Shown here in pieces: positions 21,557-61,685 of a stretch of 64,000 nucleotides of DNA. The DNA lies in the NCBI GenBank assembly GCA_965367685.1, contig CBDUJY010000006.1:92773-156772 (forward strand), given 5' to 3'. The DNA is from an uncultured Planktotalea sp. GTDB taxonomy: Bacteria; Pseudomonadota; Alphaproteobacteria; Rhodobacterales; Rhodobacteraceae. Within the stretch, counting starts at the first letter, position 1. The number at the start of each line of letters is the position of its first letter. The translations under genes and the position numbers were made by a program. A model generated the notes under the pieces. The model searched no databases, was not told the DNA's origin, and worked only from the letters and a program-made list of their open reading frames with translations.

Positions 21557-22555
21557 TTACAGGAACTTCCCCATCAAGGCGGCCGTGTCCAGCATCCGAC
21601 AGCTAAAGCCCCATTCATTGTCATACCACGTCAGGATCCGCACCATATTGCCATCCAGAACCTTGGTCTGATCAATGGCAAAGTTCGATGAATGCGGATC
21701 GTGGTTGAAATCGGTGGACACCAGCGGGCGGTCAACAATATCCAGCACACCTTTCAGCGGGCCATTGGCGGCGGCGATGGCGGCGGCGTTGATCTCTTCC
21801 GCCGTGGTGTCACGCGCCGCTTCAAAGGTCAGGTCAACACAAGACACATTCGGTGTGGGCACGCGGATCGCAACACCGTCCAGCTTGCCTGCCAGTTCTG
21901 GCAATACCAAACCCACAGCGCGCGCCGCCCCCGTGGTGGTGGGGATCATCGACATGGCGGCCGCCCGTGCGCGGTAAAAGTCGCTGTGCAGCGTGTCCAG
22001 CGTCGGCTGATCTCCGGTGTAAGAATGGATGGTGGTCATAAAGCCCTTGTTGATGCCAACCGCATCATTCAACACCTTCACAACCGGGGCCAGACAATTG
22101 GTGGTGCAGGACGCGTTGGACACATGGATGTCCTTTGCCGTCAGCGTGTCGTGGTTCACCCCGTACACGATGGTTTTATCCGCACCAGCGGATGGCGCCG
22201 AAACCAACACGCGTTTTGAGCCATTGCCCAAATGGACCTTGGCCTTGTCGCCTTTGAAAATACCGGTGCATTCCAGCACGATATCCACATTGCCCCAGGG
22301 CAAATCATCGGGATTGCGAATGGCGGTCACTTTGATTTTGCCAGCGCCTGCGTCAATCCAATCCTCGCCATGGGTGACGTGGTTTGGGAAACGGCCATGC
22401 ACGCTGTCAAATTGCAGCAGATGCGCGTTCATCTCGACCGGTCCCAGATCGTTGATCGCGACCACTTCGATGTCATCGCGGCCCTGTTCAAACACGGCGC
22501 GCAACACCAGACGGCCGATCCGGCCAAACCCATTGATTGCCACTTTAACCGTCAT
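21557..22555 (-). CDS. gap: Type I glyceraldehyde-3-phosphate dehydrogenase, copy 1
   Basis: 332 aa. MTVKVAINGFGRIGR, active site SNASCTTNCLAP, WYDNEWGF. Confidence 0.95.
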   Translation of the reverse strand: MTVKVAINGFGRIGRLVLRAVFEQGRDDIEVVAINDLGPVEMNAHLLQFDSVHGRFPNHVTHGEDWIDAGAGKIKVTAIRNPDDLPWGNVDIVLECTGIFKGDKAKVHLGNGSKRVLVSAPSAGADKTIVYGVNHDTLTAKDIHVSNASCTTNCLAPVVKVLNDAVGINKGFMTTIHSYTGDQPTLDTLHSDFYRARAAAMSMIPTTTGAARAVGLVLPELAGKLDGVAIRVPTPNVSCVDLTFEAARDTTAEEINAAAIAAANGPLKGVLDIVDRPLVSTDFNHDPHSSNFAIDQTKVLDGNMVRILTWYDNEWGFSCRMLDTAALMGKFL

Positions 22556-23046: not shown

Positions 23047-24045
23047 TTAAAGGCTGCCCATTTTCACGGCCAGATCGGCCATGCGGGTCGAGAAGCCCCA
23101 TTCGTTGTCGTACCAACCAAGCACCCGCACCAGACGTTTGCCGGTGACTTTGGTCTGATCCGCGGCAAAGATGGCGCTTTCTTCTGAATGGTTGAAGTCA
23201 ACCGACACCAGCTCTTCGTCGTTATAGCCAAGCACGCCTTTCATGGCGCCTTCGCTAGCCTCTTTCATGACCGCGTTCACCTCGTCCAGCGTCACATCGC
23301 GTTCCGCCACAAAGGTCAGATCCACGGCGGAAACATTTGGTGTGGGAACACGCACGGCGGATCCATCCAGCTTGCCCTTAAGGGCCGGAAGCACCTCGCC
23401 CAAAGCGGCGGCCGCCCCGGTTGAGGTCGGGATCATCGACATCGCGGCCGCCCGCGCGCGGTAAAGGTCTTTGTGACGACGGTCCAAAGTTGGCTGATCA
23501 CCGGTGTAGGCGTGGATTGTGGTCATAATGCCGCTGTCGATGCCAAAGGCATTGTGCAGAACCTTGGCCATCGGCGCCAAACAGTTGGTGGTGCAAGACC
23601 CGTTGGAAATCATCACGTCATCGGCGGTCAGGCCGTCATCATTCACACCGTAAACGATGGTTTTCTGCACGTTTTTGGCGGGCGCAGAAATCAGCACCTT
23701 TTTGGCACCCTGCACAATGTGCTGCTGCGCCTTGTCGCCGTCGTTGAAATTGCCGGTGCATTCCAGAACCACATCAACGCCAGACCAATCCAGCTCTTCC
23801 ATATTATAGGTCGACATCATCTGCATCGGGCCTTGGCCCACATCCATCGTGCCGTCACCCAGGGTGATTTCGTTCGGAAAACGCCCATGCACCGAGTCAT
23901 ATTTCAGCAGGTGTTTTGCTGTGTCCAGCGGCCCGGTGGCGTTCACTTTGACAACTTGAATGTCTGTGCGTCCAGACGCTGCGATTTGTGACAATGTGCA
24001 GCGGCCGATGCGACCAAAACCATTGATACCGACTTTAACGGTCAT
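23047..24045 (-). CDS. gap: Type I glyceraldehyde-3-phosphate dehydrogenase, copy 2 (paralog)
   Basis: 332 aa. MTVKVGINGFGRIGR, SNGSCTTNCLAP, WYDNEWGF. Clearly diverged from copy 1 in the N-terminal third. Confidence 0.93.
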   Translation of the reverse strand: MTVKVGINGFGRIGRCTLSQIAASGRTDIQVVKVNATGPLDTAKHLLKYDSVHGRFPNEITLGDGTMDVGQGPMQMMSTYNMEELDWSGVDVVLECTGNFNDGDKAQQHIVQGAKKVLISAPAKNVQKTIVYGVNDDGLTADDVMISNGSCTTNCLAPMAKVLHNAFGIDSGIMTTIHAYTGDQPTLDRRHKDLYRARAAAMSMIPTSTGAAAALGEVLPALKGKLDGSAVRVPTPNVSAVDLTFVAERDVTLDEVNAVMKEASEGAMKGVLGYNDEELVSVDFNHSEESAIFAADQTKVTGKRLVRVLGWYDNEWGFSTRMADLAVKMGSL

Positions 24046-40388: not shown

Positions 40389-40841
40389 ATGGCTGGGATG
40401 AAAAACCTTAAGAAAACGCGCCGCATTCAGGTGATTGTCTTGGCTTTTGTGGCTTTGGCGATCTCAACTGGTTTGATTGGATATGCGCTTCAGGATGGAA
40501 TCAACTATTACCGTTCCCCGACCGAAGTGATTGCGGAACCGCCCGAAGAAAACGAAGTGTTTCGTATGGGGGGGCTGGTGTCCGATGGGTCCATTGTGCG
40601 CGGCCAAAGCGAAACGGTGACCTTTTCGGTGACCGATGGCGGCGAGGTGATTCCGGTCAGCTATAAGGGTGTGTTGCCTGATCTTTTTGGCGAAAACCAA
40701 GGGATGATTGGTACCGGATCATATGTGGACGGCGTGTTTGTGGCCTCGGAAATTCTGGCCAAACATGACGAAAATTACATGCCAAAAGAGGTGCTTGATA
40801 GCCTGAAAGAAACTGGCGTGTATGTGGAACCGACCTCCTGA
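40389..40841 (+). CDS. ccmE: Cytochrome c maturation heme chaperone CcmE
   Basis: AAGGAG RBS 8 nt upstream. N-terminal TM anchor and the heme-binding motif LAKHDENYMPKEV. Confidence 0.92.
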   Translation: MAGMKNLKKTRRIQVIVLAFVALAISTGLIGYALQDGINYYRSPTEVIAEPPEENEVFRMGGLVSDGSIVRGQSETVTFSVTDGGEVIPVSYKGVLPDLFGENQGMIGTGSYVDGVFVASEILAKHDENYMPKEVLDSLKETGVYVEPTS

Positions 40842-40852
40842 TTTCCACAATC

Positions 40853-40867
40853 TTAACGTAATTTAAC
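40853..40867 (+). promoter_or_regulatory. CtrA-like direct repeat TTAAC-N5-TTAAC (TTAA-N6-TTAAC) upstream of the endolysin gene
   Basis: Read directly from the sequence, 40-54 nt upstream of the ATG at 40907. The spacing is one bp shorter than canonical TTAA-N7-TTAA. Confidence 0.3.
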
Positions 40868-40906
40868 CAGCCTTATCCCCGTGTTGAACCGCGGGGAGAG
40901 GCCCGG

Positions 40907-41518
40907 ATGAAAAGCGTTGAAGAGATCGCAGATGAGATCATTGCCCGCGAAGGCGGCTATGTGAACGACCCCAGTGACCCGGGGGGGGCGACCAAATACG
41001 GTGTCACAATCCACACAATGCGCGGGCTTGGGCTTGATCTGACCGGGGACGGAAAGGTCACGACGCAGGACGTCAAGGCGCTAAGCCGCGATCAGGCGCG
41101 CGATATTTTTGTGCGTCACTATTTCAAACGTCCGCGTATCGCCGAACTGCCCCTGCCGCTTCAGGCGACGGTGTTTGATATGTATGTCAATTCTGGCGGC
41201 AATGCGGTGCGAATTTTGCAACGGCTTTTGGGCAAGATGGGCTTTCGCGCGACTGTGGATGGTGCTTTGGGGCCGCAAAGCCTGGCGGCTGCAAGATTGG
41301 CCCATGCGGCGGCACCGGACCATCTGGCGGATGCTTACGGGATCGAGCGGCGCAATTACTATTACCGGTTGGCCGATCAACGCACCGCCTCGCGCAAATA
41401 TGCGCGGCGCAAGGATGGCGGCAAGGGGGGATGGATCCGCCGGGCCGAGGAATTCATTGCGCCCAAATATCATTTTTCCAACAAAGAACACCGTGAGAGG
41501 GTCGCGAAATGGGGATAA
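40907..41518 (+). CDS. GH108-family muramidase with C-terminal peptidoglycan-binding domain (phage/GTA-type endolysin)
   Basis: 203 aa. N-terminal AREGGYVNDPSDPGGATKYGVT (GH108 signature with the catalytic Glu in EGGY) followed by a PG_binding_3-like region (LQRLLGKMGFRATVDGALGPQSL). GGAGAG RBS. Confidence 0.8.
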   Translation: MKSVEEIADEIIAREGGYVNDPSDPGGATKYGVTIHTMRGLGLDLTGDGKVTTQDVKALSRDQARDIFVRHYFKRPRIAELPLPLQATVFDMYVNSGGNAVRILQRLLGKMGFRATVDGALGPQSLAAARLAHAAAPDHLADAYGIERRNYYYRLADQRTASRKYARRKDGGKGGWIRRAEEFIAPKYHFSNKEHRERVAKWG

Positions 41519-42114
41519 TAGGATCACTTTTCAACATTCTCTTTGGGGGCGGGCGCAATGTGATCCGTGACACCGCAGAGGTGTTTGTGGAAAACCGCGA
41601 GGCGGGCGCCCTGCGCGATGTGGATCTGCACCGCGCCACGTTAGAGGCTTACGCCGCTGAATTTATGCACCCCCAGAAAGGGATGTTTGATCGGTTTATG
41701 GATGGCCTTAATCGGCTGCCGCGTCCGGCGTTGGCCTTGGGCACATTGGGGTTGTTCACGGCGGCGATGGTGGACCCCATTTGGTTCTCGGCCCGGATGC
41801 AGGGGATATCGCTTGTACCGGACCCCTTGTGGTGGCTGCTTGGCGCCATTGTCAGTTTTTATTTTGGCGCGCGACATCAGGCCAAAGGGCAGGATTTTCA
41901 ACGCTCTATCGCCACAACCTTGTCGCGCACGGATGAGGTGCGGCGCAATATCGAGGGGCTGACCGGGCAGGAGACCACAGATCAAAGCCAACCGGTTTAT
42001 GCGCCGCTTTCTTTACGTGCAGCCCCCGCCCCTCAGGCCCAACCCGTCGATACCACAGGCAATGCAGCACTTGTGGCGTGGGTTAAGTCGCGGGGGCGCA
42101 CAGGTGGGCAGTGA
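41509..42114 (+). CDS. Holin, '3TM holin for gene-transfer release' type
   Basis: 201 aa. The start overlaps the endolysin stop by 10 nt. N-terminal IIGSLFNILFGGG, RLPRPALALGTLGLFTAAMV and DPLWWLLGAIVSFYFG helices, then a long hydrophilic tail. Confidence 0.65.
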   Translation: MGIIGSLFNILFGGGRNVIRDTAEVFVENREAGALRDVDLHRATLEAYAAEFMHPQKGMFDRFMDGLNRLPRPALALGTLGLFTAAMVDPIWFSARMQGISLVPDPLWWLLGAIVSFYFGARHQAKGQDFQRSIATTLSRTDEVRRNIEGLTGQETTDQSQPVYAPLSLRAAPAPQAQPVDTTGNAALVAWVKSRGRTGGQ

Positions 42115-42298
42115 TTTGATTTTGAAACTGGTGTCCGAACACGGGCCTTGGGTTTTGTTGGTGTTTTACCTTCTGTACCGCGATTTTCAGAAAGATCAGG
42201 CAACGCGGGCAGTGCTGGATAAAAACTCATCCATCCTGATTGAGATCACCACAATCATTCGCGAACGCTTGCCAGCCGGCGGAGGGCGGGGCCGATGA
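42104..42298 (+). CDS. Hypothetical small single-pass membrane protein (about 60-64 aa)
   Basis: GTG at 42104 (or TTG at 42116) overlaps the holin stop. One TM (GPWVLLVFYLLY) and a helical tail. The stop overlaps the next ATG (ATGA). Confidence 0.5.
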   Translation: MGSDLILKLVSEHGPWVLLVFYLLYRDFQKDQATRAVLDKNSSILIEITTIIRERLPAGGGRGR

Positions 42299-42420
42299 TT
42301 TGGTTTTTTGAAATGGTGAAAGAGCTGATTTCGAACGCACAGCTGCGCCGATCAGTGGAACGAAACCAAAAGGCCGCGGCAGAGTTGGATGCGGTCGTGC
42401 GAGAGGTCTTGCAGGAATGA
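42295..42420 (+). CDS. Hypothetical 41-aa protein (MIWFFEMVKELISNAQLRRSVERNQKAAAELDAVVREVLQE)
   Basis: My own translation. ATGA overlaps at both ends tie it to the neighbouring ORFs. Too short for the ORF track. Confidence 0.4.
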   Translation: MIWFFEMVKELISNAQLRRSVERNQKAAAELDAVVREVLQE

Positions 42421-42839
42421 AACAGGCATTTGTGTTGATGATGTTGATCGCGCTGCTGTTGCAGGCGGGGTATCAATGGGCTGGCTATGATGTGGTCTAT
42501 CAAATTGGCTATGGGGCGATCACGCTGATGGGGCTGATGATCTCGCTGACATTCCTGTGGCTTTACGTGGTGCGCGCAACGCCCCTGGCACTTGGAATGG
42601 CCTACAGCTGGTCGGGGGCCAGCCTTGTTGTGGGGTGGTGGTGGATCTATTCGCTGTTGGGGGAACCCGCTTGGGCGGCGGAAAGCCCGGCGCATTTTGT
42701 GTTTGTGGCGCTTTATTTGGTTGGTGCTTTGCTACACTTTTCTGTGATCAATCGGTCGTTCGGCTGGCATGGGGCCATGTTTTTATGGCCCGTGCTAGGG
42801 GCGCTTGTTCTTTCTAGCTTGATTTACATCATGACTTGA
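42417..42839 (+). CDS. Hypothetical polytopic membrane protein (140 aa, about 4-5 TM)
   Basis: Track ORF. Trp/Tyr-rich TM helices (SLVVGWWWIYSLLG). I recognise no family. Last gene of the overlapping cassette. Confidence 0.6.
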   Translation: MKQAFVLMMLIALLLQAGYQWAGYDVVYQIGYGAITLMGLMISLTFLWLYVVRATPLALGMAYSWSGASLVVGWWWIYSLLGEPAWAAESPAHFVFVALYLVGALLHFSVINRSFGWHGAMFLWPVLGALVLSSLIYIMT

Positions 42840-42952: not shown

Positions 42953-44923
42953 ATGATTACCGAGCTTGGACATTTTGCGCTGATCTTAGCGCTGGGCGTG
43001 GCACTGATCCAGATGATCGTGCCACTGATTGGGGCGCATAAAGGCTGGCGTGGCTGGATGGAGATGGCGGTTCCTGCCGCCTCTCTTCAATTTGCGCTGA
43101 TTGCCGCGGCATTCGCGGCGCTGACTTATGCGTTTGTAACTTCTGACTTCTCGTTGAAATTGGTGTATTTCAACTCTCACAGCGACAAGCCGATGCTTTA
43201 CAAAGTGTCGGGCGTTTGGGGCAACCACGAAGGCTCTATGCTGTTGTGGGTGCTGATTGTGGCGCTGTTTGGCGCGATGGCCGCGTGGTTTGGTGGCAAT
43301 CTGCCGCTGCGCCTTAAGGCCCGCGTGCTGGCGGTGCAAAGCGCCATTGGGGCGGCGTTCTTGGCCTTTGTGATCTTTACATCAAACCCGTTTTTGCGCC
43401 TTGCGCAGCCACCGTTTGATGGCCGGGATTTGAACCCGCTGTTGCAAGACGTGGGCCTCGCCTTCCACCCCCCCTTTCTTTACCTCGGCTATGTTGGCCT
43501 TTCGATGACCTTCAGTTTTGCCGTTGCGGCGCTGATCGAAGGGCGCATTGATGCCGCTTGGGGCCGTTGGGTGCGCCCCTGGACCTTGGCCGCCTGGGTC
43601 TTTTTGACCATCGGCATCGGCCTTGGATCTTGGTGGGCGTATTACGAGCTGGGCTGGGGCGGGTTCTGGTTCTGGGACCCGGTTGAAAACGCGTCCTTTA
43701 TGCCTTGGCTTTTTGCCGCCGCTTTGTTGCATTCGGCCATTGTGGTTGAGAAACGGGAATCGCTGAAAAGCTGGACAATCCTGCTTGCGATCCTTGCGTT
43801 TGGCTTCTCGCTCATCGGGACCTTCTTGGTGCGTTCAGGCGTGATCACCTCGGTGCATGCGTTTGCCTCTGATCCCGAACGCGGCGTGTTTATCTTGGCC
43901 ATTCTTGCGGTCTTCACCGGCGGGGCGCTGACGCTTTTTGCCGCGCGCGCAAGCGCGATGGAGGCACGTGGTGTCTTTGGCCTTGTCAGTCGCGAAAGTG
44001 CGCTGGTGGTCAACAATATCCTTTTGGCGGTTGGGTCCATTGTGGTCTTTATCGGCACCATCTGGCCGCTGATTGGCGAGATTTTTGAACGCAAAGTCTC
44101 GGTTGGTGCGCCGTTTTTTAACGCGGCGTTTATCCCCTTTATGGTGGTTTTGGCGCTGGTGTTGCCCGTCGGGGCAATGTTGCCGTGGAAACGGGCGAAA
44201 GTGAAACGGGCCGCCAAGCAATTGATCCCGGCGTTTGCCTTGGCGATTGCGGTGTTGGCTTTGGTTTGGGCGATGCAAACCGGGCGCTCTGCTTTGGGGC
44301 CGATTGGGATGTTCCTTGGCACATGGCTGGTGGCAGGTTCACTGACCGATCTTGCGGGCCGGACCGGGCGGGGCGCGATTTCGAACCGTTTGTCACGGCT
44401 GACCCGCCTGCCTCGTGCAGATTGGGGTAAGTTCACCGCGCATGTGGGGCTTGGGATCACCATTATGGGCATCGCCGGGCTTGAGGCTTGGCAGCACGAA
44501 GATATTCGTGTGACCCAGCTGAACGACCCGTTTGAAGTGGCCGGATATACGGTGACCTTGGAAAATGTGTACCGCGAACAGGGCCCCAACTATACCACCA
44601 CAATGGCGGATATGCGGGTGGAACGGGGCGGCGAAACGGTTGCGCTTCTGCATCCCGAAAAACGCGTCTATCCCGTGCAAGCCATGCCCACAACCGAGGC
44701 CGCGATTGCCAATGGGTTCTGGCGCGATATCTATGTTGTGATCGGCGATCCACAGGACAATGGCGGTTGGGCGGTTCGCACCTTTATCAAACCGTTTGCC
44801 AACTGGATCTGGGCTGGGTGCATTATCATGTCACTGGGTGGGTTGATCAGCTTGTCTGACCGGCGCTTCCGGGTGGCTGCTGGTGCGGCCAAAGCCCCAA
44901 AACAAGGGGTGCCTGCGGAATGA
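42953..44923 (+). CDS. ccmF: Cytochrome c heme lyase subunit CcmF
   Basis: Trimmed to MITELGHFALILALGVAL. WWD motif WGGFWFWDPVENASFMPW. About 656 aa. Confidence 0.93.
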   Translation: MITELGHFALILALGVALIQMIVPLIGAHKGWRGWMEMAVPAASLQFALIAAAFAALTYAFVTSDFSLKLVYFNSHSDKPMLYKVSGVWGNHEGSMLLWVLIVALFGAMAAWFGGNLPLRLKARVLAVQSAIGAAFLAFVIFTSNPFLRLAQPPFDGRDLNPLLQDVGLAFHPPFLYLGYVGLSMTFSFAVAALIEGRIDAAWGRWVRPWTLAAWVFLTIGIGLGSWWAYYELGWGGFWFWDPVENASFMPWLFAAALLHSAIVVEKRESLKSWTILLAILAFGFSLIGTFLVRSGVITSVHAFASDPERGVFILAILAVFTGGALTLFAARASAMEARGVFGLVSRESALVVNNILLAVGSIVVFIGTIWPLIGEIFERKVSVGAPFFNAAFIPFMVVLALVLPVGAMLPWKRAKVKRAAKQLIPAFALAIAVLALVWAMQTGRSALGPIGMFLGTWLVAGSLTDLAGRTGRGAISNRLSRLTRLPRADWGKFTAHVGLGITIMGIAGLEAWQHEDIRVTQLNDPFEVAGYTVTLENVYREQGPNYTTTMADMRVERGGETVALLHPEKRVYPVQAMPTTEAAIANGFWRDIYVVIGDPQDNGGWAVRTFIKPFANWIWAGCIIMSLGGLISLSDRRFRVAAGAAKAPKQGVPAE

Positions 44924-45393
44924 TTTTGCGCATCAAACCCCTGTTCACATCCCTGGCGTTGGCGGTCACATTGGCCGCCAGCCCCGCTTTGGCCGTGAAC
45001 CCCGACGAGGTGCTGGACAACCCGGTTTTGGAAGAGCGCGCCCGCGAGATTTCTGCCGACCTGCGCTGTGTGGTGTGTCGCGGCGAAAACATCGACGAAA
45101 GCAACGCCGAGATTGCGCGTGATTTGCGCCTGTTGGTGCGCGAACGCCTGGTCAAAGGCGACAGCAACGAAGATGTTGTCGACTTTGTTGTAGAGCGTTA
45201 CGGCGAATATGTGTTGATGAAGCCGACCCTTTTAGGGGCGAATATCGTGCTGTGGTTGGCAGGCCCAATCTTGTTCTTACTGGCGGCGATCACGGGCGGG
45301 CTTTACCTGCGACGGCGGTCACAATCGTCTGAACAGGGGCAAGGGCTGTCTGACACGGAACAGGCCCGCTTGGACGAGCTGATGAAAGACTAA
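44920..45393 (+). CDS. ccmH: Cytochrome c biogenesis protein CcmH (CycL)
   Basis: ATGA overlap with ccmF. LRCVVCRGENIDESNAEIARDLR (CXXC motif). Confidence 0.9.
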   Translation: MILRIKPLFTSLALAVTLAASPALAVNPDEVLDNPVLEERAREISADLRCVVCRGENIDESNAEIARDLRLLVRERLVKGDSNEDVVDFVVERYGEYVLMKPTLLGANIVLWLAGPILFLLAAITGGLYLRRRSQSSEQGQGLSDTEQARLDELMKD

Positions 45394-49777: not shown

Positions 49778-51853
49778 GTGCTGGGCCAGATCCTTCTGAG
49801 GGTCGAAACCGAACGGGGTCGATTTTTGCATTGGGTTCCGATCTTTCTGGCAACAGGGATCGGGGGGTATTTCCTGTGGCCCAATGAACCGACCGAAACG
49901 CTTTACATAATGCTGGCCGGATTTATCCTGCTGATGCTGGTGGTCCGGTGGCGCCTGCCTTGGGGCTATGGCCCGGTGGCGGCGATGTTTGCCCTTGTGG
50001 CGCTTGGGGTCTGTCTGGCGGGCGCGCGGGCGCATTATGTGGCGGGGCCGGTGCTTGGATATCGGTATTACGGCGCTATTGAAGGGCGCATTGTCGCGAT
50101 GGACCGATCGCAATCAGATGCGGTGCGCCTGACATTGGATCAAGTGCGCCTGGCCGACATGGCCCCTGACCGTATTCCGCGCAAAGTCCGCGTGTCGCTA
50201 CATGGCGCATTCGGGGGGACGTTGGGCGATTCCACCCCGCAAGTGGGCGCACGGGTCGCCCTGACCGGGCATTTGTCTGGCCCCAATGGCCCGGTGGAAC
50301 CCGGCGGATTTGATTTTCAACGCATGGCCTGGTTTCGCGGCATCGGTGCGGTTGGCTATACGCGAACGCCGGTGATGCTTTTGGCACCGCCCAACCGGTC
50401 CGGCGCAAAGGTGCAAGTGACCCGCGCGCGCATGGCGATTGCTGATTGGGTGCGGGGGATTTTACCCGGCGAAGCAGGTGCTTTTGCCGCTGCGGTCACC
50501 ACCGGCGACAGATCCGCGATGGGGCAGGGCACATTGGCCGCGTTGCGCGGGGCCAACCTTGCGCATCTTCTGGCGATTTCCGGGTTGCACATGGGGCTTT
50601 TGACCGGGTTTGTTTATCAGGCGCTGCGGTATATTTTTGCGCTTTTCCCGTGGGTGGCGCTGCGGTATCCAACCAAGAAATTCGCGGCCGTGGCAGCCAT
50701 TGGTGCGGGTGCGATTTACCTTCTGCTGTCTGGCGGCAGCATCGCAACCGAGCGCGCCTTTATCATGGTGGCAACCATGCTTGTCGCGATCTTGTTTGAC
50801 CGTCATGCGCTGAGCTTAAGGGCAGTGGCGATGGCGGCGATCCTGGTGCTGATCTTACATCCAGAGGCGCTGACTGAACCGGGGTTTCAGATGTCCTTTG
50901 CCGCAACAACCGCGTTGGTCGCGGTGTTTGGCTGGCTCAGGCAACGCCAAGGCTGGCGCGCGCCAAAATGGGCGCAACCCATTCTGGCGGTTGTAATTTC
51001 CTCGGCGGTGGCGGCGGCGGCAACCGCGCCTTTTGGGGCCGCGCATTTTAATCAGGTCAGCCATTTTGGCTTGATCGCAAACCTTGTGTCCGTGCCGCTG
51101 ATGGGGGCGGTGGTAATGCCCGCCGCTGTTGTCGCCGCCATTTTGGCCCCTTTTGGCTTGGGATGGGTTGCGATCACGGTGATGGGGCCTCCGGTCGAAT
51201 GGATCATCTTTGTGGCCCATTGGGTGTCGTCATTGGACGGTGCCATTGGGCATGTTTCGCAACCGCCCGCGTTTGTCCTGCCGCTGGTTGCAATCGGCGG
51301 GCTGTTGGTCATTCTGCTCAGAAAATGGGAGCGGACATTGGGCTTGATCCCCCTGTGCGCCGCCACCTTGATGTGGACAGAGGCCGACCGCCCGCTTGTG
51401 TTGATCAGCCAAACCGGGGGGCTGGTGGGCGTGTTCACGCCAGACGGGCGCGCCTTGTCCAAACCCAAAGGCGATGGGTTCGCGGCAAAGGTCTGGTTGG
51501 AAAATGACGGCGCCCCGATGGAGCAGTTCGACGCCCATCAAATCGGGGTCTTTTCAGGCACAAAAGGCGTCTATCGCGCGGTGATTTCAACCCTTGAAGG
51601 GACCGACATCATAATTGCGCATCTGACCGGAAAAACCGGCGCGAAAGAGCTTGTGACCACCTGTGCCACGGCAGACTACGTGGTGCTCAACACATCCGTC
51701 ACTGAGGACGCACCAAAAGGGTGCCAAATCTTTGATCTGGGCCGTTTGCGCAGGACGGGGGCAGTGGCTTTTTGGCCGGGACCAGAGGGTGTGACCATAA
51801 ATACCGCGCGCCAAAACCAGGGGAATCGCCTTTGGACAGGGTGGTCATTCTGA
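49778..51853 (+). CDS. comEC: ComEC/Rec2 family DNA internalisation channel protein
   Basis: 691 aa, GTG start with a GGAGG RBS 11 nt upstream. Polytopic. Competence-domain motif NLAHLLAISGLHMGLL. Confidence 0.88.
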   Translation: MLGQILLRVETERGRFLHWVPIFLATGIGGYFLWPNEPTETLYIMLAGFILLMLVVRWRLPWGYGPVAAMFALVALGVCLAGARAHYVAGPVLGYRYYGAIEGRIVAMDRSQSDAVRLTLDQVRLADMAPDRIPRKVRVSLHGAFGGTLGDSTPQVGARVALTGHLSGPNGPVEPGGFDFQRMAWFRGIGAVGYTRTPVMLLAPPNRSGAKVQVTRARMAIADWVRGILPGEAGAFAAAVTTGDRSAMGQGTLAALRGANLAHLLAISGLHMGLLTGFVYQALRYIFALFPWVALRYPTKKFAAVAAIGAGAIYLLLSGGSIATERAFIMVATMLVAILFDRHALSLRAVAMAAILVLILHPEALTEPGFQMSFAATTALVAVFGWLRQRQGWRAPKWAQPILAVVISSAVAAAATAPFGAAHFNQVSHFGLIANLVSVPLMGAVVMPAAVVAAILAPFGLGWVAITVMGPPVEWIIFVAHWVSSLDGAIGHVSQPPAFVLPLVAIGGLLVILLRKWERTLGLIPLCAATLMWTEADRPLVLISQTGGLVGVFTPDGRALSKPKGDGFAAKVWLENDGAPMEQFDAHQIGVFSGTKGVYRAVISTLEGTDIIIAHLTGKTGAKELVTTCATADYVVLNTSVTEDAPKGCQIFDLGRLRRTGAVAFWPGPEGVTINTARQNQGNRLWTGWSF

Positions 51854-60139: not shown

Positions 60140-60577
60140 TCACCCCGATGTGCTGCGCAATCTGGCCATATTCGAATCGCGGTCATTGACCCCCAAAAGA
60201 TTCGCAACCAAGCGCATCAGGGCATCTTCCTCTTCGGCGCGTGACCCGTCCGCAAGGACAACGGACCACGCGGCCTCAATGACTGTAATGCGGTCTTCAT
60301 GCGGGACGGCGTCCTTGATTGCGCGCGTAAAGCGGACCGTGTCGGGGGCTTGGGTTTCAAACTGTTCCGCCTTTTGGCGAAGCGCTTTGGAGGTGGCGTC
60401 ATCCAGCCCATAGCGAGCCGCAAGGGCCGTATCAATGGCGGCGATTTCCACGGCGGCGTAATCCCCATCTGAACGGGCGAGCCGCACCAAAAGGGCCGAA
60501 AGCGCAAGGCGCGCGTCATCTGCATTGAGCGGGGCGGGGGTCGGGGCGAAAAGGCGGTCAAAAAGTGTGTTGAGCAT
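60140..60577 (-). CDS. TerB-like (tellurite-resistance TerB family) protein, copy 1
   Basis: Trimmed to MLNTLFDRLF. Pattern LLVRLARSDGDYAAVE...WSVVLADGSRAEEEDALMRLVANLLGV. Confidence 0.65.
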   Translation of the reverse strand: MLNTLFDRLFAPTPAPLNADDARLALSALLVRLARSDGDYAAVEIAAIDTALAARYGLDDATSKALRQKAEQFETQAPDTVRFTRAIKDAVPHEDRITVIEAAWSVVLADGSRAEEEDALMRLVANLLGVNDRDSNMARLRSTSG

Positions 60578-60707
60578 GGCGACGATATAAGGCCTTGAGG
60601 GGGGGAAGGGAAAGGGCGGCATGGGATTTGCGTGGCTATCTCACGTCATTTTGTTGTGAGGGTCAGGCTGGTTTTTGGGGGAAAGTCATGCAGATCTAGG
60701 GGGGCGT

Positions 60708-61175: not shown

Positions 61176-61616
61176 TCAGCTGGTGGCGTTTACGATGCGC
61201 GCGCTTTTCACGTCATCTGCGGACAGTCCGATGGCCTTGGCGACATGGGTGACAAAACAGGCCTCTTCCTCGCGCACAACACCATCAGCCACCGACACTT
61301 CCCAAAGGGCGGATAGCATCGCCATCCGGTCGGCTTGGGGCAGGTGATGGGTGACCAACTCCGTGAGCGTTTCTGTGTCGGGGGCTTCTGCCTCAAGCTT
61401 TTCACACATGGCGCGCGTTTTTGCGGCCTCAACCACATTCATCGCGCGGTATTTCACAAACAACCGGTCAATGCGCGCAATTTCCTCAAAGGCGTAATGC
61501 TGATCTGCTTTGGCAAGGCGCACCAAAAGCACACCCATCGCATATTCCGCATCCAGCTCTGGCAGCTGCGCTTCTTTTGGCAGTTTCTTGAATTTCTGAA
61601 AAAACTCTGACAGCAT
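61176..61616 (-). CDS. TerB-like protein, copy 2 (paralog of 60140..60577)
   Basis: Trimmed to MLSEFFQKF. LLVRLAKADQHYAFEE...WEVSVADGVVREEEACFVTHVAKAIGL parallels copy 1. Confidence 0.65.
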   Translation of the reverse strand: MLSEFFQKFKKLPKEAQLPELDAEYAMGVLLVRLAKADQHYAFEEIARIDRLFVKYRAMNVVEAAKTRAMCEKLEAEAPDTETLTELVTHHLPQADRMAMLSALWEVSVADGVVREEEACFVTHVAKAIGLSADDVKSARIVNATS

Positions 61617-61685
61617 GGTTCCCCCCAATCCTGTTTCGTGACGTTACCCAGCGGGCAGCGGTCGGGCAAGGGGGCCTTTTGGATA

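Follow-up and report, generated by a model that had tools for sequence, protein, structure and literature searches.

What is a lysis cassette of phage type doing among the genes for cytochrome c maturation (ccm), and what purpose would it serve there? The question arises from a 64,000-nucleotide (nt) stretch of DNA from an uncultured Planktotalea sp. (assembly GCA_965367685.1, contig CBDUJY010000006.1, positions 92,773 to 156,772), here called the window, in which five open reading frames (ORFs) lie between ccmE and ccmF. An initial annotation, made from the nucleotide sequence, had described these ORFs as a domesticated lysis module for a gene transfer agent (GTA) and had suggested that their location could couple them to ccm transcription. 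Our analyses indicate that the cassette is very likely the orthologue of the rcc00555/rcc00556 lysis cassette of the Rhodobacter capsulatus GTA (RcGTA), located between ccmE and ccmF as in the ancestor of the Rhodobacterales, and that it very probably serves this organism as its GTA lysis module. The first part of the initial description was sustained by the protein families of the first two genes, the published position of the locus and the lack of a prophage context. The second part, coupling to the ccm genes, was not.

The endolysin and holin genes

The first gene of the cassette, ORF1 (40907-41518, plus strand), encodes a predicted endolysin of 203 amino acids (aa). A search with profile hidden Markov models confirmed that it contains the GH108 muramidase domain (PF05838, E = 1.8e-26) and the peptidoglycan-binding domain (PG_binding_3, PF09374, E = 1.2e-22) that had been recognized initially. 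The protein also matched the NCBIfam equivalog NF040573, 'holin-associated N-acetylmuramidase' (354 bits; cutoff, 240), and the endolysin family PHROG 315 (E = 3.7e-35). There was no hydrophobic segment anywhere in the protein, including the N terminus, and no signal peptide. ORF1 is 97% identical to the protein of Aliiroseovarius lamellibrachiae, the closest public genome, and identities across Rhodobacterales ranged from 67 to 97%. In our analysis the window was assigned to a species of Aliiroseovarius.

The second gene, ORF2 (41509-42114, plus strand; 201 aa), had been proposed to encode a holin of the three-transmembrane (3-TM) type associated with GTA release. In agreement with this, residues 14-123 matched PF11351 (GTA_holin_3TM, 'Holin of 3TMs, for gene-transfer release') with E = 1.9e-26 and 93 bits versus 24.8. 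Together, these matches place ORF1 and ORF2 in the protein families for which the RcGTA lysis genes are the reference. Their identification with rcc00555 and rcc00556 draws on family models, on synteny and on published work, R. capsulatus being outside the set of loci that we compared. The endolysin/holin pair is required for lysis and for release of RcGTA in R. capsulatus (Hynes et al. 2016, PMC5026251; Fogg et al. 2012). [quoted passage not shown]

Position of the cassette across Rhodobacterales

We mapped the window proteins onto a sample of 80 muramidase-encoding Rhodobacterales loci. The holin gene followed the muramidase gene at all 80. There was a ccmE gene directly upstream at 67 loci and a ccmF gene downstream at 67, with both flanks present at 57; several of the loci without both flanks were at contig ends. 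The same position had been seen in an earlier survey of 21 Rhodobacterales genomes, where cycJ (ccmE) bordered the rcc00555-rcc00556 locus in 19 genomes and a heme lyase gene did so in 12 (Hynes et al. 2016, PMC5026251). In the synteny comparison that the initial annotation had proposed, the rcc00555/556 orthologues likewise have cycJ/ccmE on one side and the heme lyase gene on the other. The protection from loss that the initial annotation expected of this placement is speculative. In two Ketogulonicigenium genomes the pair is cleanly gone and the flanking genes are adjacent, and all 21 genomes surveyed contain the RcGTA head-tail cluster (Hynes et al. 2016, PMC5026251). The authors of that survey regarded the locus as resident in Rhodobacterales since their common ancestor and its placement as evidence of vertical inheritance. 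Placement inside the ccm genes is therefore already published, and the window adds one more genus.

In the window, ccmE (cycJ; 40398-40841, plus strand; PF03100, E = 6.2e-31) lies outside the cassette on its upstream side. Downstream are ccmF, for a heme lyase subunit (42953-44923, plus strand; PF01578 and PF16327), and ccmH (44920-45393, plus strand; PF03918). The genes between them were laid out as described initially: five ORFs on one strand, in which the four successive junctions overlap by 10, 11, 4 and 4 nt, the last two as ATGA. The gap from ORF5 to ccmF is 113 nt. The order in A. lamellibrachiae is the same, with murI-argC-ccmE followed by genes for 203, 205, 64, 41 and 140 aa and then by ccmF-ccmH; the ccmE counterpart is a 147-aa gene call in the same place. 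In one metagenomic relative (L085:2985-3431), there is an extra ORF of 148 aa, without a family, between ccmE and the endolysin gene.

We estimated ratios of nonsynonymous to synonymous substitution (dN/dS) against A. lamellibrachiae. The values were 0.04 for ORF1, 0.16 for ORF2, 0.055 for ORF3, 0.35 for ORF4 and 0.03 for ORF5, and 0.057 for ccmF. Purifying selection acts on all five ORFs. Two ORFs are present on the minus strand, one of 146 aa over ORF3-5 (42255-42695) and one of 148 aa over ORF1 (41081-41527). They were taken as spurious because the plus-strand frames are conserved with low dN/dS.

A different explanation for the cassette is that it is left over from a prophage and is unrelated to a GTA, having been kept by chance, for autolysis or for bacteriocin-like killing. 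Many phages encode GH108 endolysins (PHROG 315), and the endolysin of a Sulfitobacter phage is 32% identical to ORF1. In contrast, the cassette occupies the same position in 57-67 of the 80 genomes, representing many genera, and its dN/dS is as low as that of ccmF. No capsid, tail, terminase or integrase gene was found among the approximately 55 other ORFs of the window, which by Pfam are housekeeping genes or have no family, and there were no tRNA genes or att-like flanking repeats in the window. The GC content of the cassette, 0.55-0.59, is like that of its flanks. All of this upheld the initial report that phage genes and att-like repeats are absent and that base composition is like that of the flanks. 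In addition, there was no match to the ORF2 holin in 50,697 phage genomes searched with tblastn, and the Rhodobacterales homologues of rcc00555 group apart from those of phages (Hynes et al. 2016, PMC5026251). We consider an origin as a prophage remnant highly improbable. An integrated prophage or a genomic island was also considered, and was rejected for lack of an integrase, att repeats, a tRNA target, structural genes and a deviating base composition.

A conserved TTAAC box upstream of the endolysin gene

The cassette had been taken to begin at position 40853. We found that positions 40853-40906 are untranslated and are part of a 65-nt spacer between ccmE and the start of ORF1 at 40907. This spacer holds the 5' regulatory elements of the cassette. 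The first of these is a pair of TTAAC pentamers resembling CtrA half-sites (TTAACGTAATTTAAC; 40853-40867, plus strand). TTAAC was present between -67 and -44 of the endolysin ATG at 55 of 74 loci, compared to approximately 1.2% of random 50-nt windows from the same loci, a background that is mostly coding and so somewhat overstates the contrast. At 18 loci the TTAA motif was doubled, in most cases as TTAA-N6-TTAA or TTAA-N7-TTAA. The box was commonly followed, 8-10 nt on, by a conserved GCAGCCTT, which makes up the outer part, on the 5' arm, of the hairpin described below.

A TTAA-containing motif at this position was also present at loci without ccmE upstream, and three of them (L025, L040 and L072) had the exact TTAAC. 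Because the box persists next to other upstream genes, it belongs to the cassette and travels with it, and we presume that it is part of the cassette's own promoter. In R. capsulatus, GafA binds the lysis promoter and the endolysin transcript is basal in the absence of ctrA or gafA (Fogg 2019). That promoter also contains putative CtrA half-sites (Sherlock & Fogg 2022).

These findings bear on the suggested coupling to ccm transcription, by which read-through from ccmE to ccmF would make the potential for lysis track cytochrome c maturation. Such coupling would fit genes that are on the same strand throughout and separated from the cassette by spacers of just 65 and 113 nt, with no terminator-like site between ccmE, the cassette and ccmF and no sigma-70-like promoter match in the spacer (an uninformative scan). 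Against it are the TTAAC box, found at most loci and kept where ccmE is not the neighbor, the binding of GafA to the R. capsulatus lysis promoter and the basal transcription of the endolysin gene there without ctrA or gafA, and a hairpin that pairs with the ribosome-binding site and points to insulation from upstream transcription. We regard transcriptional coupling of the cassette to the ccm genes as quite improbable.

A leader hairpin over the ribosome-binding site of ORF1

The second element of the spacer is a 13-base-pair (bp) hairpin (40870-40902, plus strand) with a 3' arm that holds the Shine-Dalgarno sequence of ORF1, GGGGAGAGG (40893-40901). Its folding energy is -24.5 kcal/mol (z = -3.1), and none of 200 dinucleotide shuffles folded as well. 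We folded the 45-48 nt immediately 5' of the muramidase start at each locus, and the mean z was -2.3 to -2.5 across 74-80 loci. Stretches of the same length upstream of four control genes gave mean z values of -0.24 (ccmE), -0.50 (ccmF), 0.03 (argC) and -0.42 (ccmH). The median hairpin had a stem of 12 bp and spanned -36 to -3 of the endolysin start, and the G-rich Shine-Dalgarno positions (-13 to -6) were paired at 75-86% of the loci. The arms varied by genus, for example TCTTGTC/GACAAGA, TTCCGC/GCGGAGG and CCCCGTG/CGCGGGG. The hairpin is thus conserved in structure and not in sequence, and is specific to the endolysin gene, as judged from per-locus z-scores with four control genes and no covariance model. 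RNAalifold returned no pairs from the leaders, for which the MAFFT alignments are not structural and hand-set registers depend on the locus. There was no Rfam family for the hairpin.

A hairpin downstream of ccmE could also be the transcription terminator of that gene, or a palindrome bound by a protein. Consistent with this, the hairpin was weaker at the 13 loci where ccmE is not the immediate upstream neighbor (z = -1.33 versus -2.34; Mann-Whitney p = 0.04, in a small sample of loci that are not phylogenetically independent), although that difference is compatible with either reading. There was no T-run 3' of the hairpin, with a mean of 1.6 T in 8 nt across the loci, and the hairpin lies downstream of the TTAAC box. 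Its position is fixed relative to the start of the endolysin gene and not to the stop of ccmE. The differences in arm sequence between genera argue against a protein-binding site, and the 3' arm is itself the G-rich Shine-Dalgarno sequence. We find a terminator or protein-binding site unlikely, and favor a function in translation of the cassette.

Three additional genes downstream of the holin gene

The remaining genes of the cassette, all on the plus strand, are ORF3 (42104-42298; 64 aa, GTG start), ORF4 (42295-42420; 41 aa) and ORF5 (42417-42839; 140 aa, a predicted membrane protein). ORF3 is BhlA-like below threshold; ORF4 and ORF5 are without a family. The complete triad was present at 16 of the 80 loci, and one additional locus (L012) had ORF3 and ORF4 only. 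The genera concerned are Aliiroseovarius, Maritimibacter, Celeribacter, Halocynthiibacter, Vannielia, Sinisalibacter and Aliiruegeria. The triad occurs in approximately one fifth of genera. It was always chained to the holin gene and was found exclusively in this slot. In Maritimibacter and Sinisalibacter (L006, L010:7964-8527 and L049), a minus-strand gene for an outer-membrane beta-barrel protein (PF13505, E = 3.4e-7) lies between ORF5 and ccmF. In Aliiruegeria haliotis (L076:7808-7978), a peptide like ORF4 is encoded after ORF5 and not between ORF3 and ORF5.

ORF3 has a short hydrophobic helix at the N terminus (EHGPWVLLVFYLLY) and a charged helix at the C terminus. It belongs to a family of 310 proteins and has a dN/dS of 0.02-0.055. 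The window protein scored 14 bits against the BhlA holin family, PF10960, for which the gathering score is 22.6. Comparison of ORF3 to eight phage BhlA proteins with hhalign gave a probability of 46% (P = 2e-4) over 27 columns in the N-terminal helix. The BhlA genes of those phages adjoin holin and endolysin genes.

ORF4 is a hydrophilic helical peptide with the motif RxVERNxxAAxELDxVVREVL. It overlaps its neighbors by ATGA at both ends, and three public genomes include a gene call for it. ORF5 is an integral membrane protein with five predicted helices (AlphaFold2 predicted local distance difference test score, 95), the invariant motifs TPLALGM, GWWW and GAxLHF, and a dN/dS of 0.03-0.16. Foldseek found nothing significant in the PDB (best E = 0.66), and the only BFVD matches were weak ones to membrane proteins without a name and, with E of approximately 1, to a few holins of actinophages. 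An exhaustive profile search of 1.84 billion representatives recovered 69 relatives of ORF5, all of the same size. The two most divergent of the homologues whose context was examined (L084 and L085) are in the same five-gene cassette. Neither ORF3 nor ORF5 had a tblastn match in the 50,697 phage genomes.

We considered spanins as candidates for ORF3-5 and rejected them. Cysteine is absent from all three proteins, which leaves no lipobox and hence no o-spanin, and ORF3, with about 35 residues past its helix as judged by eye, looks too short for an i-spanin. The check was confined to the annotated frames, an embedded or overlapped Rz1-like frame being outside its scope.

At about 10 of the 80 loci (L004, L017, L018, L020, L021, L028, L031, L059, L060 and L062), the gene directly after the holin gene encodes a tail-anchored XhlA-like protein of 67-76 aa, in which a coiled coil is combined with a TM segment at the C terminus. 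All 10 matched PF10779 (best E = 5.8e-10). The Sulfitobacter phages pCB2047-A/C and NYA-2014a have homologues with 52% identity in their lysis regions; in pCB2047-A/C, the gene is two genes after that for a GH108 endolysin. At four of these loci (L018, L031, L059:7382-7804 and L060:7236-7709), the next gene encodes a protein of 140-157 aa with an N-terminal TM segment and a conserved C terminus, ..HRCHxxWLTxxRFYG, for which there was no Pfam family. At approximately 40 loci, ccmF directly followed the holin gene. The occupants found show that the slot after the holin gene collects phage-type holin partners. Because two different partners of this type occupy the same slot, the gene arrangement argues that ORF3-5 are part of the lysis module rather than of the ccm cluster.

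The opposite assignment would make ORF3-5 small membrane proteins that act with ccmF and ccmH, or in some other function of the envelope, and that are merely beside the holin gene. The triad is directly upstream of ccmF and had no significant family, fold or phage match, and most genera lyse without it. On the other hand, ORF3 overlaps the holin gene by 11 nt and the ORFs are chained by ATGA, as opposed to the 113 nt that separate them from ccmF. The only Pfam family that recurs for ORF3 is the BhlA holin, and the alternative occupant of the slot is XhlA-like, a protein of phage lysis cassettes. A function outside lysis seems doubtful to us, and we favor assignment of ORF3-5 to the lysis module.

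Other features of the window

The other ORFs of the window with a family are for metabolism, transport and regulation. A comEC gene (PF03772 and DUF4131; window 49778-51853) is located 7 kb downstream of the cassette. ComEC is needed in R. capsulatus for taking up DNA delivered by the GTA; the closeness of comEC to the cassette is probably coincidental. There is a neighboring pair of glyceraldehyde-3-phosphate dehydrogenase paralogues (window 21557-22555 and 23047-24045) and a neighboring pair of TerB-domain proteins (window 60140-60622 and 61176-61628).

Comparison to known lysis systems

The cassette shares with RcGTA rcc00555/rcc00556, and with Dshi_1756/1757, a GH108 and PG_binding_3 endolysin followed by a PF11351 holin, encoded by overlapping genes on the same strand. 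It also shares the location, which is preceded by cycJ/ccmE, followed by the heme lyase gene and remote from the head-tail cluster, and a motif in the promoter region that is like a CtrA half-site. It differs in that the holin gene is chained to three more conserved ORFs, of 64, 41 and 140 aa; the publications consulted describe the locus as a pair of genes. The function and regulation of the RcGTA pair are from experiments in R. capsulatus; those of the cassette in the window are predicted.

Similarities to other systems concern the additional genes. ORF3 is similar in size (64 versus 70 aa) to BhlA of Gram-positive phages and of SPbeta, a Bacillus subtilis prophage with blyA (amidase), bhlA and bhlB. 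In both, an N-terminal helix that contains a G-P-aromatic motif precedes a charged helix, and both adjoin holin and endolysin genes. However, the similarity of ORF3 is below threshold, its host is a Gram-negative bacterium, and the neighboring endolysin and holin are of other families. PBSX xhlA-xhlB-xlyA and the Sulfitobacter phages with an XhlA-like gene compare to the about 10 of the 80 loci at which the slot after the holin gene holds an XhlA-like protein; the window has the BhlA-like triad instead. Lambda-type cassettes (holin, endolysin and Rz/Rz1) similarly combine a holin and a cytoplasmic endolysin with small membrane proteins encoded downstream, but ORF3-5 are free of cysteine, which excludes an o-spanin.

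A model for the cassette

By analogy with R. capsulatus, and given the TTAAC box, the cassette would be transcribed in the small subpopulation of cells that make GTA, from a promoter in the 65-nt spacer that depends on phosphorylated CtrA and on GafA. The signal-less GH108 muramidase would build up in the cytoplasm until the PF11351 holin permeabilized the inner membrane; the muramidase would then degrade peptidoglycan, and the cell would burst and release the particles, as expected by homology. On mRNA that reads through from ccmE, the hairpin and the overlapping junctions would hold down translation of the entire cassette. ORF3-5, two of them membrane-associated and ORF4 hydrophilic, would be co-translated accessories that might modulate the holin, as a co-holin or as an antiholin that sets timing. 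We suggest this role for ORF3-5 because of where they lie, because they strictly occur together and because ORF3 has BhlA-like features.

There are several points that weigh against parts of this interpretation. No RcGTA-like head-tail cluster and no gafA were found within the 64 kb covered, which is part of the genome only; since the cluster is present in all 21 genomes of the earlier survey, the expectation that this genome has one is high. The TTAA-N6-TTAA site of the window is one base short of the canonical CtrA site, TTAA-N7-TTAA. An intrinsic terminator scan, itself uninformative, detected no terminator-like sites between ccmE, the cassette and ccmF, and because there is no such site on either side of the cassette, some co-transcription with the ccm genes is possible. 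The hairpin would act as a translational gate at the first cistron, and a transcript driven by CtrA/GafA may start within the hairpin and so escape the gate. For the accessory genes, PF10960 was the top and only recurrent Pfam match in the ORF3 family (11 of 15 members), with a best E of 0.0012, below the gathering score. ORF4, which was neither folded nor searched for relatives, had no family match in Pfam or NCBIfam. ORF5 had no link to a larger family and no informative relative or fold match.

We also propose, tentatively and as possible rather than probable, that the cassette is a modular gated device, in which a hairpin that sequesters the ribosome-binding site is combined with interchangeable, lineage-specific holin partners that tune the timing of lysis. 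If so, the gate, together with the chained overlaps, would let a lethal operon sit co-directionally among the ccm genes while going untranslated from read-through mRNA. As far as literature searches show, the accessory triad, the XhlA-like alternative and the leader hairpin are undescribed.

The presence of a GTA lysis module in the ccm cluster adds nothing beyond the work of Hynes et al. (2016, PMC5026251) except for one more genus. Of possible interest to GTA specialists are a putative safety catch that acts on translation of an operon that is lethal and domesticated, a promoter box carried by the cassette, and two alternative sets of uncharacterized accessory genes resembling the holin partners of Gram-positive phages. 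Current models of RcGTA have a two-gene lysis step, and these features may bear on how a suicide cassette is kept silent in 99% of the population and on how lysis is timed.

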